A DNA stretch of 16,486 nt, from IMG/VR virus record IMGVR_UViG_2740892258_000006, one strand, 5' to 3'. Positions 3,625-12,662 of the stretch are shown piece by piece. This DNA comes from a virus. Lineage: Duplodnaviria > Heunggongvirae > Uroviricota > Caudoviricetes. The notes beneath the pieces are model-generated. The model was not told where the DNA came from and did no database searches. It saw nothing but the letters and a program-made list of their open reading frames with translations. The position numbers were made by a program, and so were the translations under genes. Position 1 is the stretch's first letter. Each line of letters opens with the position of its first letter.

Positions 3625-4154
3625 CCCCTGAATCCTGCCGGGATCTGGCTGTAGTCCACGTTGTCGTAACTGGCTTTGAAGTACGGGTCCTCGCGTTTTT
3701 CGGTGTACGTACTTACGGACGGCGATAAGCGCAGGGAAAGCTCATCCCATTTTTCCCGCAGCTTCGACGGGCTGAGCACGTTACGGCACCAGAACGGATC
3801 GCGGCTGACGCGGCTGTACATCTCGCAGATTTGTTTGTGAGTACGACCATCCTGCACACACATCAGGCGAATTTCGTTTGCCCAGGCTGTCCAGTTCGGT
3901 TCTTTGGGACGAACCACCTCGCCGTCACATTCGGCAGCCTGCTCGTACAGGGCGATGATTTTTTTCCAGAGCCACTGTGCGCAGGTCAAATCATCCTGCG
4001 TTCCCCACTGGCGCTTTTTAGGGCTGAATACAACAGCATCAGGATGGCGAGTTAAAAACTCCTGTTCAGCCGTCTGCGTGTCCGGTTGCGAAGCGTCCGG
4101 ACGAGAAGTTTTTTTCAGTTGCGAGCGACGGTAGTGTGTTGTTAAACTGTTCAT
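3621..4154 (-). CDS. Hypothetical phage early protein (177 aa), function not assigned
   Basis: Intact ORF, translationally coupled (ATGA) to upstream CII-like gene; Trp/Cys-rich C-terminal region. Confidence 0.55.
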   Translation of the reverse strand: MNSLTTHYRRSQLKKTSRPDASQPDTQTAEQEFLTRHPDAVVFSPKKRQWGTQDDLTCAQWLWKKIIALYEQAAECDGEVVRPKEPNWTAWANEIRLMCVQDGRTHKQICEMYSRVSRDPFWCRNVLSPSKLREKWDELSLRLSPSVSTYTEKREDPYFKASYDNVDYSQIPAGFRG

Positions 4155-4238
4155 GCGTTAGTTTCTCCACAGTCACGACACGCCACGGCGCCCGGAGCTG
4201 CACACTCGCGGGCGTCACTACTTTCTGAAACGCAAAAG

Positions 4239-4338
4239 ATTTTGTAGACCAGTGCTGCATGCTCCTGCAGCTTCGAAATTGAGAGGTAATTTTGTAGACC
4301 AGTGCTGCATGCTCCTGCAGCTTCGAAATTGAGAGGTA
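4239..4338. repeat. Perfect tandem duplication, 2 x 50 bp (4239-4288 = 4289-4338)
   Basis: Identical copies read directly from sequence. Confidence 0.95.
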
Positions 4339-4545
4339 CAGCTCATCGTTAATTGCTGTCTTCTCATGCGGTTCCACTACACCGTCTTCAATTGCTGAAC
4401 GAATCTGTTTTGAATAACTGCCGATCTGTTCAATGACCTCCAGCAGGCGTTGGTTGATATCGGCGTTGTCCACATCCTCGACGTCAGGAAGAGACACAAA
4501 GACGCCATTTGCAGACTGCGCCACAGCATCAGCAATGAAGTGAGT

Positions 4546-4567
4546 GCCACCAGCACGCCACCAGCAC
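4546..4567. repeat. Perfect tandem duplication, 2 x 11 bp (ccaccagcacg, phase ambiguous by one base)
   Basis: Read directly from sequence; both flanking ORFs encode RAGG across it. Confidence 0.85.
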
Positions 4568-4806
4568 GCTGTAAAACCATTGCCCATCCCAGCGGGAAAA
4601 TCTGATCGCCATCTGCACGAAGGCGGTTGAATAAAGCGTTTTCTGTTACATCGAGCCAGTCAGCCGCTTCAGCGTAACCACCCGGCAACGCCGCGATCGT
4701 TTTTCTGACAGCTTTCACGTACCACTCAGGCTGTTTTTCTATTTTCCAGTGATGCTTACCCACGATTAGCCTCATCGTTCTGTGGTTAAAAATTGAAAGT
4801 GTTCTG

Positions 4807-5007
4807 CTAATCTTTCGGATAGATATCCGGTCTTAAGTCAGATTTCGTAATTGCACCTGACGTGCATTGCTCAAGTTTTTTAGCCAGCACAAAACTGGCT
4901 TTTTTATAGCCATTGAAAACCAGCCGTAAGTAGCCAGGTGTTGAGCCAACTTTTCCGGCCAACTCGCCCTGCTGTTCTTTGGTTAAAGAGTCCCAATACG
5001 CTTTCAT
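4807..5007 (-). CDS. cro: Cro-like small HTH repressor
   Basis: 66-aa ORF (MKAYWDSLTKEQQGELAGKVGSTPGYLRLVFNGYKK...) divergent from cI-like gene; GGAGG upstream; start at 5007 within longer ORF 4807..5310. Confidence 0.6.
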   Translation of the reverse strand: MKAYWDSLTKEQQGELAGKVGSTPGYLRLVFNGYKKASFVLAKKLEQCTSGAITKSDLRPDIYPKD

Positions 5008-5013
5008 ACAATG

Positions 5014-5079
5014 TGTACCTCCGGTGTACATATTACATGATTGAAATGAACCTTCAAGATACTTGTACCTTAACGGTAC
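5014..5079. promoter_or_regulatory. Immunity-region operators and divergent promoters: O1 TGTACCtccggTGTACA (5014-5030), O2 TGTACCttaacGGTACA (5063-5079); PR-like -10 TAATAT (5030-5035) and -35 CTTGAA (5053-5058) on minus strand
   Basis: Two 17-bp dyad sites sharing TGTACC half-sites between divergent cro and cI starts; 17-bp spacer between -35 and -10. Confidence 0.5.
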
Positions 5080-5097
5080 AAGGGTTTTAATTTCGTT

Positions 5098-5772
5098 ATG
5101 AAAACAATCCATGACATCCGGCGGTCTAACGCCAGAAAACTGAGAGATGGTGTTGGCGGGAATTCTTCCTTTGCCACTATGATTGATCGCGAGCCAACCC
5201 AGACCAGCAGGTTTATGGGAGATGGTGCTACTAAAAATATCGGTGACAGCATGGCACGACACATCGAAAAATGTTTCGACCTGCCTGTCGGATGGCTCGA
5301 TCAAGAACACCAGACAACGAACATCACAAAAAAACCTGATGTTTCAATCACTAATAAACAAATCACATTAGTCCCTGTCATATCATGGGTACAGGCCGGA
5401 GCATGGAAAGAAGTTGGATATTCTGAGGTTGATTTGAGCACAGCAGAAACGTATCCCTGCCCTGTACCCTGTGGGGAAATGACTTATATCTTGCGGGTGA
5501 TAGGTGATTCAATGATTGATGAGTACCGCCCGGGAGACATGATTTTTGTCGATCCTGAAGTACCTGCCTGCCACGGTGACGACGTTATTGCATTGATGCA
5601 CGATACAGGTGAAACCACCTTCAAAAGGTTGATAGAAGATGGGACACAGCGTTATCTCAAAGCGTTAAACCCAAACTGGCCTGAGCCTTACATTAAGATC
5701 AACGGTAATTGCTCTATAATTGGTACTGTGATTTTCTCAGGAAAACCAAGAAGATACAAAATCAAAGCCTAA
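5098..5772 (+). CDS. cI: CI-like prophage repressor (HTH N-terminus + S24 LexA-type peptidase C-terminus)
   Basis: C-terminal GDSM Ser motif and downstream Lys (TFKRL) of S24 autopeptidases; divergent from cro. Confidence 0.8.
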   Translation: MKTIHDIRRSNARKLRDGVGGNSSFATMIDREPTQTSRFMGDGATKNIGDSMARHIEKCFDLPVGWLDQEHQTTNITKKPDVSITNKQITLVPVISWVQAGAWKEVGYSEVDLSTAETYPCPVPCGEMTYILRVIGDSMIDEYRPGDMIFVDPEVPACHGDDVIALMHDTGETTFKRLIEDGTQRYLKALNPNWPEPYIKINGNCSIIGTVIFSGKPRRYKIKA

Positions 5773-5784
5773 TCAATGTTTATG

Positions 5785-5807
5785 AACCTGCTTCGGCAGG
5801 TTTTTTT
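5785..5807 (+). terminator. Rho-independent terminator after cI (aacctgc-ttcg-gcaggtt + T7)
   Basis: 7-bp GC-containing stem, 4-nt loop, T-run. Confidence 0.7.
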
Positions 5808-5924
5808 ATACTTGACAATGTACCTTTGAGATACATAATGTACCCAAGAGAAACAACAAACAGGCAGGACGCCCACGAAGTAGCCGCCTGGGGCATATGA
5901 AGTCCAGGATGATTCGTTAGCAAC

Positions 5925-5947
5925 AAAAAAGCGCCCTATAGGACGCT
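5925..5947 (-). terminator. Rho-independent terminator for the LprI-like gene (agcgucc-uaua-gggcgcu + U6 on minus strand)
   Basis: Hairpin with one G-U pair followed by T6, 28 nt after the stop. Confidence 0.55.
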
Positions 5948-5974
5948 TCGCTCTTTAACAATCTGGATGACTTA

Positions 5975-6487
5975 TTACTCAGATTTGAACTTTGGTTCTG
6001 GCAAAAGAGGAGGAGTTGAGTCCTCGAATCGTAGCCAGTGCTCCCAGATATCGTGGGATTGTAATTCCAGAAGACCAATTTGACGTGATGCAACTGCAGT
6101 GCCAGCTATAGTTCCTCCTGCATAATCAACCTGGACGGACTTTGACGCTTTCTCAATTAATTCTGTCCAAGCTTCACTTTCCGCGTTAAAAGAAGCAGTT
6201 AATTCCTGCAGACGCTGTGGATCATCCTTGTTGTCTTGTTTCAAACGATTCAGGGCGGCCACCGAATACTTATTCTTAACCCAACTAACCTGAGCTAACT
6301 GAACTCTCTGACAAGCGTCCATATCAGTAGTTGTTTCCTGAGGCATATCAAAGCAGGAAATAAAAAAAGTCTCAACACCATCATTTAGACTACTGCTCGG
6401 CTGGTTCAAAGCATCAGAAGCATTGGATGCTATCGGTATTATCAGTGCTACCGACAGAATCAAACGTTTAACATAAATCGCTCCCAT
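5975..6487 (-). CDS. Secreted/periplasmic protein with signal peptide, LprI-like (DUF1311) fold suspected; moron
   Basis: N-terminal MGAIYVKRLILSVALIIPIASNA signal-like sequence; Cys...Cys and Trp/Tyr spacing reminiscent of DUF1311; antisense to surrounding operon; own terminator. Confidence 0.5.
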   Translation of the reverse strand: MGAIYVKRLILSVALIIPIASNASDALNQPSSSLNDGVETFFISCFDMPQETTTDMDACQRVQLAQVSWVKNKYSVAALNRLKQDNKDDPQRLQELTASFNAESEAWTELIEKASKSVQVDYAGGTIAGTAVASRQIGLLELQSHDIWEHWLRFEDSTPPLLPEPKFKSE

Positions 6488-9667: not shown

Positions 9668-10800
9668 CAATCAGGAAACACCACCAGGGAGAAACGATCA
9701 ATATAACTTTCACCTACAAAGGAGTTAGATGTCGTGAGCCGCTTTCCAATCTGGAAGTAACACCAAAGAACATTAAATACGCCGAGCGTACACTCGGCGA
9801 AATCCATAATAAGATCGAAAGGGGAACATTCATTTATGCAGAATATTTTCCCCGTTCTGCTCGTTTGAAAATTTTTGGTAATGCTGCTGCAAGCAAAACG
9901 GTAAAGATGTACCTGGACGAATATCTTGAAATCTGCGAAACAAGAAAACTTTCACCCTCTACGATTGGTGGCTATAAAAAATGCCGTAGTGCGTTAGCCT
10001 CACTTCACATTTGCCCTGCAAGTGAATTAACACCAGCAACCCTGAAAGCGTGGATTCAAAGCCAGAAAACAACCTTAAAAACCATTCGCAACCAGTTATC
10101 TTTCCTACGGTCAGCACTTGATGAAGCCGTGACCGATGGGGTACTTCAAATTAACCCCGTATCGTTAGTAACAGCTTCGCGCTACCAAAGTGATAAGTCA
10201 GAAGCAGAAAGCAGCTATGTGGTTGATCCGCTATCACCAGCAGAAGTTGATGCATTACTAGCAGCAGCCGGAAACAAACAATGGGAAAATCTGTTCCGGT
10301 TCGCCATACATACAGGCCTGCGTAGTTCTGAATTATGTGCCCTACGATGGCATGATATCGACTTTGTTGGAAAAACAGCCCATGTTCAGAGCGCAAGTGT
10401 TGTCGGAGTTATCAAAGGAACAAAGACAAAAGCCGGTACCCGTAAAGTTGAACTGACTGAAGAAGCAATGTTGGCGTTGATAAACCAGAAGCCATTTACA
10501 TTCATGAAGGATGCTACTGTCTTTGAAGATCCAAAGACCAATAAACCCTGGGCAAGTGCTGATGCAATTAGGAAAAAAGCATGGGTGCCAACATTGCGAA
10601 AAGCAGGTATTCGTTACAGAAACCCATATCAAACCAGGCATACATTCGCCACCAGCCATATCAGCCGGGGAGCAAACCTGTTTTGGCTTGCGGCTCAAAT
10701 GGGCCATAAAGGGCCTGAAATGTTATTCAGGCACTATGGACAATACTTGAAAGAGTATGATGGGAGGGCAAGTATCAAGGATAAAAAGGCTTTATTTTAA
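9628..10800 (+). CDS. int: Tyrosine site-specific integrase (lambda-type with N-terminal arm-binding domain)
   Basis: 390 aa; catalytic-domain signatures HTGLRSSELCALRW (Arg), RHTFATSH (His-x-x-Arg), GHKGPEMLFRHYGQY (His...Tyr). Confidence 0.9.
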   Translation: MGQTKLLKLPRGVTIRKHHQGETINITFTYKGVRCREPLSNLEVTPKNIKYAERTLGEIHNKIERGTFIYAEYFPRSARLKIFGNAAASKTVKMYLDEYLEICETRKLSPSTIGGYKKCRSALASLHICPASELTPATLKAWIQSQKTTLKTIRNQLSFLRSALDEAVTDGVLQINPVSLVTASRYQSDKSEAESSYVVDPLSPAEVDALLAAAGNKQWENLFRFAIHTGLRSSELCALRWHDIDFVGKTAHVQSASVVGVIKGTKTKAGTRKVELTEEAMLALINQKPFTFMKDATVFEDPKTNKPWASADAIRKKAWVPTLRKAGIRYRNPYQTRHTFATSHISRGANLFWLAAQMGHKGPEMLFRHYGQYLKEYDGRASIKDKKALF

Positions 10801-11409
10801 GTCATTATGCCAATCGTCTACTGTTTGAAACCAAATTTTTAACCTTTGCATAAAGGTACGATCCTTTTTGGGAGGGTGGTACCTTTGAAAAGAAGTATGT
10901 AACGCTTCGATAACTCCCATACAAGCATCAATTACTTCTTGTGCTTTAACCGGGCGATCGGCATCTGAAAGCTTGTGAGCGACCTCACAATCCAGAGTTG
11001 CTTTCTCTAGTACAGATGAGAACACCTCGTCAGGTATATACAGTCCTCTGCTTTCCAAAATGCAAATCAGTTTGGAAACTTGTTGAGCTTTAGCCAAGAT
11101 AGTTAACAAGTATGAAACAGAAGCCTTTGTTCTATCCTTTTGCAACCTTAACAATCGATGCTTTGATGCTCTAATTTTAGGTTGAGTTGTCTGACTGAGC
11201 CAATAGTTAGAAGAAATATCAGAAATTTCAATAACTAACTTTGAAATAGCATCAATAATTGATTTCGATTCAGAACGTGTCGCCAGTTTTACAGAATTAT
11301 TGTACGCAACTCGCCATCCAATGAAAACTAAGCAGACGCTAACTACTGTGATACACCACGAATACTGTCCTATTTGTGCTACTAATGACATTGGTTCCGT
11401 ACTGATCAA
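10792..11409 (-). CDS. Cargo operon gene C: membrane-anchored protein (one N-terminal TM helix, helical soluble domain), unknown function
   Basis: TTG start at 11409 with AAGAGG overlapping upstream stop (alternative ATG 11391); TM segment YSWCITVVSVCLVFIGWRVAY; 3' end overlaps int by 9 nt. Confidence 0.6.
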   Translation of the reverse strand: MISTEPMSLVAQIGQYSWCITVVSVCLVFIGWRVAYNNSVKLATRSESKSIIDAISKLVIEISDISSNYWLSQTTQPKIRASKHRLLRLQKDRTKASVSYLLTILAKAQQVSKLICILESRGLYIPDEVFSSVLEKATLDCEVAHKLSDADRPVKAQEVIDACMGVIEALHTSFQRYHPPKKDRTFMQRLKIWFQTVDDWHNDLK

Positions 11410-11419
11410 CTATCGCCTC

Positions 11420-11746
11420 TTATACTCTTTCTGGTTGTGCTAAATCAATAAATTTATCAATCTGTTCTTTGTAGAACGGAACATCACTTTTTATAATCAA
11501 ACGTGCTTTAACGTTGGCTTTAGGTATCCCTTCCTTACGGATGAGACCTCCAAACGCCTCTTCTAAGAAAGAGGAACCAACACCCAGTGCTATACCGCGA
11601 AAATCAACCACAATCTCCTGTTCAGTACCCTTCAGCGCAGGCACCAAAAACTCTCTACGAAATCTTTCCGCACTGTGTGGGCTATCCGTTGTGTAACGTC
11701 CGAAAGGTGTTCTGGAGAACTCCTTCGCTATGACGATATTTCTCAT
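11420..11746 (-). CDS. Cargo operon gene B: small STAS-like protein (DUF4325-like, tentative)
   Basis: 108 aa; AGGAG 8 nt upstream of ATG 11746; motif EIVVDFRGIALGVGSSFLEEAFGGLI resembles STAS-like DUF4325 as I recall it; 4-nt gap to gene A. Confidence 0.6.
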   Translation of the reverse strand: MRNIVIAKEFSRTPFGRYTTDSPHSAERFRREFLVPALKGTEQEIVVDFRGIALGVGSSFLEEAFGGLIRKEGIPKANVKARLIIKSDVPFYKEQIDKFIDLAQPERV

Positions 11747-11750
11747 AAAA

Positions 11751-12662
11751 TCATCTCCTGGGAACCAGCGACCATTGTAGTAAAGTACCCGGTATGTACT
11801 CAGCTAGCTTCTCACATCGAGGACTACTGTCATTAGAATTATAGCTATAACGAGCCCTTCCTGTTAGTATCAGAAGTGTCTCATTATCCTCACAACCTGC
11901 CCCAATAGGTCTCTTGATATCTTCAGAGCCATTTCCCCGTCCGGAACCAACAAAGCGGGATTCCCCTACTAACATAGCTCTTTCCACAGAAGATACTTCG
12001 TTTTGAATGCTATGACCATCACCATTAGGCACGAAACTTCTATAAATCCCCAATCCAAGGTCACAAACGATAAAAACGACTTTATTTTCATCACGATTGA
12101 ACCAAGCGCACTGCCACCATCGTTTACCTTTGAGAAGCTGAATATCTGACTCGAACCCCTCATCTTCATACGCATGATGAGAAACATTGAGCAAAGCTTC
12201 ACTAATCGCTGTCAGCAGTAAGCCTAACTGTTCATTATTAAGCAGAGCACTTTTCTGCAGCATGAGTACTGTTTCAACAATATGCTCGTAAGGTTCGACA
12301 GCTGACTGAAAGTATCGTTCCTCCCTCGTAAGTGCATTCAGTTTCTCTTCTGTGCCAGCAAGCAAAGCACGAGCAAGTCCAGTACCAACGATCCATCTAT
12401 GCCCAGATGGGTTATCATCCTTTTTAGGCCATTTAAAACGTATAAAATTAGGGTCCCGGGTTAAAAATTGAGCTCTATTTACTATGGCAAAGAACAGTAC
12501 CGATGCCGCAGCTGAGGCAAATTTTACCTTGGACAAATCAACTATAACTCGACCTTTATTTTTTACTCCAATCGATTCAATCGAGTTGATGAAGTTCAAT
12601 GTCCCAGCCCTAGAATCATCTGAGTAAATGCAAAATTTGCTTGGGGGTACCAGTATGGTCAT
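11751..12662 (-). CDS. Cargo operon gene A: GHKL (histidine-kinase-like) ATPase with unassigned N-terminal domain
   Basis: 303 aa; Bergerat-fold motifs in the C-terminal half: N-box EALLNVSHHA, G1 CDLGLGI, G2 GSGRGNG. Confidence 0.65.
   Translation of the reverse strand: MTILVPPSKFCIYSDDSRAGTLNFINSIESIGVKNKGRVIVDLSKVKFASAAASVLFFAIVNRAQFLTRDPNFIRFKWPKKDDNPSGHRWIVGTGLARALLAGTEEKLNALTREERYFQSAVEPYEHIVETVLMLQKSALLNNEQLGLLLTAISEALLNVSHHAYEDEGFESDIQLLKGKRWWQCAWFNRDENKVVFIVCDLGLGIYRSFVPNGDGHSIQNEVSSVERAMLVGESRFVGSGRGNGSEDIKRPIGAGCEDNETLLILTGRARYSYNSNDSSPRCEKLAEYIPGTLLQWSLVPRR

Follow-up and report, generated by a model that had tools for sequence, protein, structure and literature searches.

The window, by which is meant the whole 16,486 nucleotide stretch of phage DNA that was analysed, contains a 90 bp intergenic region (5008-5097) between two divergent genes, the cro-like ymfT and the cI-like ymfK. 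This arrangement is evident from the open reading frame list and the sequence, and confirms the first-pass annotation in its placement of the starts of cI (plus strand, 5098) and cro (minus strand, 5007), 90 bp apart. The features of the region and of the sequence beyond cI are as follows, with the operators scored out of 12 against the dyad TGTACC-N5-GGTACA.

4807..5007, minus strand: ymfT, cro-like, 66 aa with a helix-turn-helix, start at 5007
5014-5030, no strand: O_R1, TGTACCtccggTGTACA, 11/12, one mismatch to the perfect dyad
5057..5030, minus strand: predicted PR, -35 TTGAAG (5057..5052), 16 bp spacer, -10 TAATAT (5035..5030)
5047-5063, no strand: O_R2, TGAACCttcaaGATACT, 9/12, a weaker third dyad
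5063..5098, plus strand: PRM, -35 TTGTAC (5063-5068), 17 bp spacer, -10 TTTAAT (5086-5091), start A5098
5064-5080, no strand: O_R3, TGTACCttaacGGTACA, 12/12, palindrome extending to 21 bp (5062-5082)
5098..5772, plus strand: ymfK, cI-like repressor, 224 aa, N-terminal helix-turn-helix and C-terminal S24 autopeptidase
5784..5809, plus strand: intrinsic terminator of the cI transcript, 8 bp stem with 4 G-C pairs, then a T run
5812..5839, plus strand: PL-type promoter, TTGACA, 16 bp spacer, CATAAT, 11/12
5819..5835, no strand: O_L1, TGTACCtttgaGATACA, 11/12, filling the PL spacer
5839..5855, no strand: O_L2, TGTACCcaagaGAAACA, 10/12, from the last base of the PL -10 and over the predicted start

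The sequence from 4700 to 5950 is 100% identical to prophages in strains UTI89, NU14, IHE3034 and many others, and its genes are annotated in the UTI89-type prophage as ymfL, ymfT, and ymfK. Identity to the phages PhiR29/49, SfIV, SfV, Ayreon, cdtI, 2H10, and the Stx2c-converting series is 95-99.6%. The intergenic region differs from that of e14 in strain K-12 at a single base (5013), which is outside the dyads, and from that of SfV at about 6 nt; the alignment with K-12, SfV, and Ayreon has a mean column identity of 98%. The region after cI, through PL and its operators, is identical in K-12. At a threshold of at least 95% identity, the core made up of the operators and the N-terminal half of cI is found in 1324 out of 5426 complete E. 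coli genomes, with no more than four copies per genome.

The GenBank record of SfV (U82619) contains a regulatory feature, "putative operator region", that corresponds to 5013-5081 of the window. This interval reaches precisely from the first dyad to the last, therefore the switch region should be seen as rediscovered, being one that is already annotated in a very common immunity type. It is the immunity region of e14, SfV, SfIV, cdtI, and the Stx2c phages and was already known from K-12 e14 and from the SfV annotation of 2002. What is added here is a corrected map with three O_R and two O_L, the link to a published leaderless start, and a family-wide footprint. The repressor and operators are essentially identical to those of YmfK and SfV cI, which places the window in the e14/SfV immunity group, and within E. 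coli a ymfK-type repressor (at least 95% identity) with these operators is effectively one immunity type. Full-text literature searches, which did not take in the SfV 2002 and e14 2004 papers, found no biochemical work on the YmfK/YmfT operators and no paper with the operator sequences. Likewise, neither binding nor footprinting nor reporter assays of YmfK or YmfT at these dyads were found in the searchable literature, where a match to TGTACC (PMC9769523) is an unrelated primer. Rfam identified no family at gathering score over the window, and between 4700 and 6200 gave just two chance-level matches (E 0.25).

The cI-like protein has a full-length Pfam Peptidase_S24 domain (residues 93-212, E 1.5e-26). 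In an alignment to residues 101-229 of lambda cI, Ala100-Gly101, Ser138, and Lys176 of YmfK fall on the lambda cleavage site and the catalytic Ser and Lys, with the motif pairs VQA-GAW/VQA-GMF, GDSM/GNSM, and TFKRL/TFKKL. The repressor is therefore of the kind found in lambdoid switches, having a helix-turn-helix and an S24 autopeptidase with an Ala-Gly site and a Ser/Lys dyad. Over residues 1-75 there is a distant relationship to the SPC32H Rep DNA-binding domain (PDB 5D50, E 5e-4), and a recognition helix is predicted around T34-Q35-T36-S37-R38. The protein is 98.7-100% identical to the cI proteins of the e14/SfV group, and 100% identical to that of SfIV. The cro-like gene is named ymfT in the RefSeq annotation of UTI89, with a YdaS-family helix-turn-helix. 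YmfT has weak Pfam matches to HTH_3 and YdaS and weak similarity to solved phage Cro proteins. As in other lambdoid switches, this small gene with a helix-turn-helix is divergent from the repressor gene across a short intergenic gap.

None of the complete E. coli genomes matches the window in one piece, the best doing so in 12 pieces. Between 1083 and 8279 there are four deletions (184, 144, 755, and 639 bp) relative to the UTI89 prophage, as well as seven tandem duplications, each 50-60 bp long, the junctions being otherwise 100% identical. Such a pattern resembles that of assembly or joining artefacts, or of a heavily decayed prophage. The switch is contained in the segment 4289-6783, and this segment is colinear with UTI89 except for one 11 bp insertion. 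In ymfL, the gene after cro, there is an 11 bp tandem duplication (GCCACCAGCAC twice, 4546-4567) as well as a 50 bp tandem duplication at 4239-4338. The 11 bp duplication shifts the frame and splits ymfL into open reading frames at 4377-4775 and 4066-4587; the C-terminal part of the gene matches the phage-186 CII family, Phage_CP76. Through the 755 bp deletion, most of the next two genes are gone, and the early-right operon therefore looks defective in the window. Three minus strand genes (10792-12662) are located between the integrase and the host gene glaH. These are annotated in UTI89 as a STAS-like-domain protein and two hypotheticals, and at this end of the prophage they may form a cluster of cargo or defence genes.

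Operators and promoters of the switch

The two 17 bp dyads of the first-pass annotation are present, at 5014-5030 (11/12) and 5064-5080 (12/12), and their motif is enriched. TGTACC-N5-GGTACA with up to two mismatches occurs 5 times in the 16.5 kb window where 0.36 are expected, and none of 200 shuffles reaches 5. The plain hexamer TGTACC is found 13 times against an expected 4.8, and in a background of approximately 91,000 17-mers from related loci just 2 score 11/12 or better. The fifth of the pattern matches, TGTACCCTGTGGGGAAA at 5463-5479, has two mismatches and is within the cI coding sequence; it was taken as a chance occurrence. The dyads had been placed 49 bp apart, however they are separated by 50 bp, both start-to-start and centre-to-centre, with a gap of 33 bp. 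Both are operator-like, as proposed, but a count of two operators misses the third conserved dyad (5047-5063) and the O_L pair (5819-5855). A repeat search independently placed O_R2 in one family (D4) with O_L1 and O_L2.

The start of PRM can be assigned from published data. The ymfK gene of e14 is one of five leaderless E. coli mRNAs, with a class-I start and a leader length of 0 (Romero et al. 2014, PMC4681348, Table S3). Since this K-12 start is at the A of the ATG and the sequence here is identical, the PRM start is A5098 and the cI mRNA is leaderless. The earlier suggestion that one dyad is on a presumptive PRM is therefore borne out, the intergenic region being one base different from that of K-12. 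No Shine-Dalgarno sequence is present before the cI ATG. A T(T/C)TAAT sequence 6-7 nt ahead of the ATG is kept in the Hafnia, Edwardsiella, and other Enterobacterales relatives.

For PR there is a consensus-level prediction only. The hexamers CTTGAA (reverse complement of 5053-5058) and TAATAT (reverse complement of 5030-5035) had been described as a near-consensus promoter. Both are present, but CTTGAA is one base out of register and has 2/6 matches to TTGACA. The better register is TTGAAG, with a 16 bp spacer and TAATAT. At 4/6 and 4/6, or 8/12 to consensus, this is below the threshold of the promoter scan, which did not report it, and the description as near-consensus does not hold. The TTG of the predicted -35 and the position of the -10 are conserved among relatives, and TAATAT at 5035..5030 places the predicted PR start near 5023. 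A list of transcription start sites from uninduced K-12 (PMC4681348) has no PR or PL start and no forward-strand entry from ymfK to 1207102. The missing PR start is consistent with PR being repressed.

O_R1 starts on the last base of the predicted PR -10 and spans the predicted start (about 5023), occupying -7 to +10. It also contains the cro Shine-Dalgarno sequence GGAGG (reverse complement of 5018-5022), which is invariant among relatives. Of the PR hexamers that this dyad was proposed to overlap, only the last base of the -10 is shared. O_R2 contains the predicted PR -35 and abuts O_R3. Measured upstream from the PRM start, the operator centres are at 76 bp (O_R1), 43 bp (O_R2), and 26 bp (O_R3). 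O_R3 overlaps the -35 and the spacer of PRM and, spanning 34 to 18 bp upstream of its start, is in a repressing position. Three dyad-symmetric operators are thus located over the predicted PR and the mapped PRM, as is characteristic of a lambdoid switch. O_R1 and O_R2 are 33 bp apart from centre to centre (about 3.1 turns), O_R2 and O_R3 17 bp (about 1.6 turns), and O_L1 and O_L2 20 bp. At 17 bp, dimers on O_R2 and O_R3 would be on roughly opposite faces of the helix, which makes their simultaneous or cooperative binding uncertain.

A second operator cluster, also a lambdoid trait, is found on a strong early-left promoter downstream of cI. The cI terminator that precedes it is annotated in SfV and Ayreon. 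PL is annotated as a promoter in phage Ayreon and is conserved in all of the Enterobacterales relatives, in every one of which O_L1 scores 11-12/12. The right half-site of O_L2 is weak, variable or absent in relatives. O_L2 is placed on the PL -10 as O_R1 is on the predicted PR -10, both beginning at the last base of the -10.

Several further observations were made around PL. About 20-80 nt 3' of the predicted PL start (near 5846), at 5860-5925, a stretch of nucleotide sequence is kept across genera, CAGGCAGGACGCCCACGAAGTAGCCGCC...GATGATTCG. Within this are the arms of a hairpin (5887-5891 and 5904-5908), the stem of which covaries as CCTGG/CCAGG, CCGGT/ACCGG, CCCCA/TGGGG, and CCCGG/CCGGG, with compensatory changes at three pairs in 10 sequences. 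The element has no Rfam match and, in the early-left operon, may form a structured leader RNA. A second copy was not found in the window, which speaks against a pair of the nutL/nutR kind. A 170 aa open reading frame (5975-6487, minus strand) follows immediately on the conserved leader and is convergent with the PL transcript. For this reading frame there is a separate terminator (5949-5928, minus strand), and its LprI-like match is weak (E 0.006). In SfV and K-12 e14 the position is taken by other genes, therefore the reading frame looks like an inserted moron-type gene. In Hafnia phage yong2 (L004, 2067-2140) a tRNA-Gly(CCC) is located approximately 130 bp downstream of PL and its operators, in the early-left transcription unit; there are no tRNA genes in the window. 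The Pseudomonas phages CF3a (L007, about 2025-2090) and LESphi3 (L008, about 1990-2055) have no TGTACC-type O_L pair after the repressor gene. Both have in this region two copies of a 10 bp palindrome, TGTATATACA, about 48 bp apart.

On the cro side, a 14 nt direct repeat, GTTCTnTGGTTAAA (4777-4790 and 4974-4987), was considered as a CII/PRE-type site and rejected. It is conserved in close relatives alone and one of its copies is coding.

Conservation of the operators and alternative readings

The footprint was based on cassettes with a repressor DNA-binding domain 53-86% identical to that of the window. Five of these came from phage records (Hafnia yong2, Edwardsiella EPP-1, a Vibrio phage, and two Pseudomonas phages) and 27 from the genomes of other species, including Atlantibacter, Leclercia, Enterobacter, Pantoea, Klebsiella, Kluyvera, Erwinia, Proteus, Rosenbergiella, Salinicola, Halomonas, Pseudomonas, and others. 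Together they provide 29 distinct intergenic sequences. A Cro homologue (about 33-85% identity) is present beside the operators in 28 of the 29 relatives, with none found in the remaining one (L022).

Information content across the 29 sequences peaks on the half-sites of the three dyads, at about 2 bits, while the central 5 bp of O_R3 are essentially free, at about 0.1-0.7 bits. In all 29, O_R1 is kept between -84 and -87 relative to the cI ATG, with scores of 10-12/12, and O_R3 scores 11-12/12 in every relative. The spacings are likewise steady, at 33-35 bp from O_R1 to O_R2 and 16-17 bp from O_R2 to O_R3. The invariance of the half-sites and the freedom of the central bases support the view that the dyads behave as putative operators. 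This pattern has been retained through considerable divergence, with Cro down to about 33% identity and the cI N-terminal domain to about 55%. The same TGTACC half-site accompanying cI DNA-binding domains about 55-60% identical and Cro proteins about 33% identical is the mark of a wide family of repressors and not of one immunity group. The proposal that the dyads define the immunity specificity of the prophage was therefore overstated, as TGTACC alone does not define a group.

The dyad for which another explanation deserves most consideration is O_R2. It is possible, although unlikely, that the protein-binding sites are 5014-5030 and 5064-5080, with the element between them being the PR -35 and neighbouring promoter sequence. 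The middle site is 9/12 in the window and, although 10/12 in most relatives, 8/12 in four. Its conserved central CAA is the TTG of the predicted PR -35, which accounts for part of the O_R2 conservation. However, the hexamers outside of the -35 keep TG(T/A)ACC ... G(G/A)(T/A)ACT at a fixed offset, with a score of at least 9/12 in 25 of the 29 loci, where the background frequency is 3.1e-4 per 17-mer (28 of 91,292). In Erwinia, Proteus, Salinicola, Halomonas, and Pseudomonas the left half matches TGTACC at every base, and Rosenbergiella has a symmetric variant, AGTTCCttcaaGGAACT, in which both halves are changed (AGTTCC/GGAACT). In addition, O_R2 is 79% identical to O_L1 over 19 nt. These features favour O_R2 as a third operator.

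It is very unlikely that the dyads are bound by a different factor, such as Cro alone, the CII-like YmfL or a host protein, with the S24 repressor acting elsewhere. The binding of any protein to the dyads is deduced from sequence, which leaves some room for this, yet the dyads are found with the cI-cro cassette in hosts ranging from E. coli to Pseudomonas and Halomonas, and this speaks against a host factor. The residues of the cI N-terminal domain that are invariant in relatives include T34, Q35, S37, and R38, which cluster in the predicted recognition helix. The dyads are exactly on PR, PRM, and PL, as would be expected of the sites of an immunity repressor, and the repeat search found no other enriched dyad in the switch region.

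Least probable of all, to the point of being negligible, is that the palindrome at 5062-5082 is an RNA hairpin or an intrinsic terminator-attenuator instead of a DNA operator. The terminator scan does list it, with an 8 bp stem and a 5 nt loop followed by GGTTTTAATT, but its arms are invariant and not covarying, its loop varies freely, the T-rich tail is not kept in relatives, it is upstream of both the cI start (5098) and the PR -35 and so is transcribed from neither promoter, and the same dyad is present at O_R1 and O_L1 without terminator context. An intrinsic terminator, which would have a covarying stem and a conserved U-tract inside a transcript, was therefore rejected for this site.

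Proposed working of the switch and comparison with known systems

With good confidence, the region can be seen as the one that controls lysis and lysogeny in a lambdoid prophage with e14/SfV-type immunity, with three O_R dyads and an O_L pair. The YmfK repressor, and by analogy the Cro-like YmfT, would bind the dyads. In a lysogen, repressor on O_R1/O_R2 and on O_L1/O_L2 would silence both early operons, and occupancy of O_R3 would limit cI's own synthesis. Repressor bound to O_R2 may also stimulate PRM, since its position matches that of lambda OR2, which is near -42 relative to the PRM start. DNA damage would lead, through RecA-stimulated self-cleavage at Ala100-Gly101, to derepression. Cro would then bind, probably to O_R3 first, and turn off cI. 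The best dyad is on PRM and not on PR, the opposite of the affinity order of lambda cI, therefore the occupancy logic of lambda may not transfer to this switch.

Published data on e14 bear upon its induction. The genes ymfM, which is on the PR side downstream of cro, and ymfJ and intE, which are on the PL side, undergo late SOS induction that is not explained by LexA (PMC11002266; see also bioRxiv 10.1101/2020.11.19.390815). No LexA box (CTGT-N8-ACAG, with up to one mismatch) was found between 4421 and 12481, and without one in the region SOS control must act via the phage repressor.

The abutting O_R2 and O_R3 (16-17 bp centre-to-centre) and the perfect site on PRM are kept from the Enterobacterales to Pseudomonas and Halomonas. 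A tentative suggestion, which we regard as doubtful, is that with these features and a shared half-site code the e14/SfV-type right operator is a distinct variant of the lambda design. If so, O_R2 and O_R3 could be occupied in a mutually exclusive way, or cI autorepression could dominate, in place of the OR1-OR2 cooperativity of lambda. A half-site code common to repressors 55-60% identical could also give cross-immunity or cross-regulation between genera, and could link up to four copies in one E. coli genome.

Approximately one in four complete E. coli genomes has the module, which occurs in K-12 e14 and in the Shigella serotype-converting, Stx2c-converting, and CDT-converting phages. Through its presence in e14 and the Stx2c- and CDT-converting phages, it gates the expression, on SOS induction, of toxins and of the cell-division inhibitor YmfM. 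The operator map, with three O_R, two O_L, and a leaderless cI, is useful for annotation, for the prediction of homo-immunity among co-resident prophages, and for the design of reporter and EMSA experiments. No concept is changed by it, as the switch follows the lambda paradigm.

The same immunity region is found in e14 of K-12 (ymfK/cohE repressor and ymfT/croE), SfV, SfIV, cdtI, Ayreon, 2H10, and the Stx2c phages. The surrounding prophage differs from those of the e14/SfV group, with early-left genes in the window that are yfdP/Q/R-like and the element being located beside glaH-lhgO-gabD. There are also differences within the operators, where the right half of O_R1 is TATACA in SfV and Ayreon and TGTACA in the window, and the O_R3 spacer is not the same. 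SfV and SfIV are described in the SfIV paper as being without homologues of N, cII, and cIII. YmfL has a phage-186 CII domain (Pfam CP76).

The closest solved homologue of cI residues 1-75 is SPC32H Rep (PDB 5D50, a Rep-Ant complex), a Gifsy/SPC32H-type repressor of a Salmonella phage. The match is confined to these residues, and over its S24 half YmfK instead has its matches in lambda cI, UmuD, and LexA. SPC32H Rep is said to be inactivated by an antirepressor and not by self-cleavage.

Relative to lambda, the operator sequences of the window are unrelated and its Cro, which is YdaS/HTH_3-like, is non-homologous. The gaps between the right operators are 16 bp and 0 bp, where those of lambda are 7 and 6. 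O_R1 is on the predicted start site and the ribosome-binding site of the early-right transcript and not in the spacer between -10 and -35, the perfect site is the PRM-proximal one, and the left operator has two sites. Against these differences, the overall design is that of lambda. There is a self-cleaving repressor with a helix-turn-helix and an S24 domain, in which the Ala-Gly, Ser, and Lys are aligned, and a divergent cro gene. Three 17 bp dyads are located between PR and PRM, with the middle one approximately 43 bp upstream of the PRM start. Likewise, the cI mRNA from PRM is leaderless, a second operator cluster is present on PL downstream of cI, and, from the published e14 data, the switch is subject to SOS induction.
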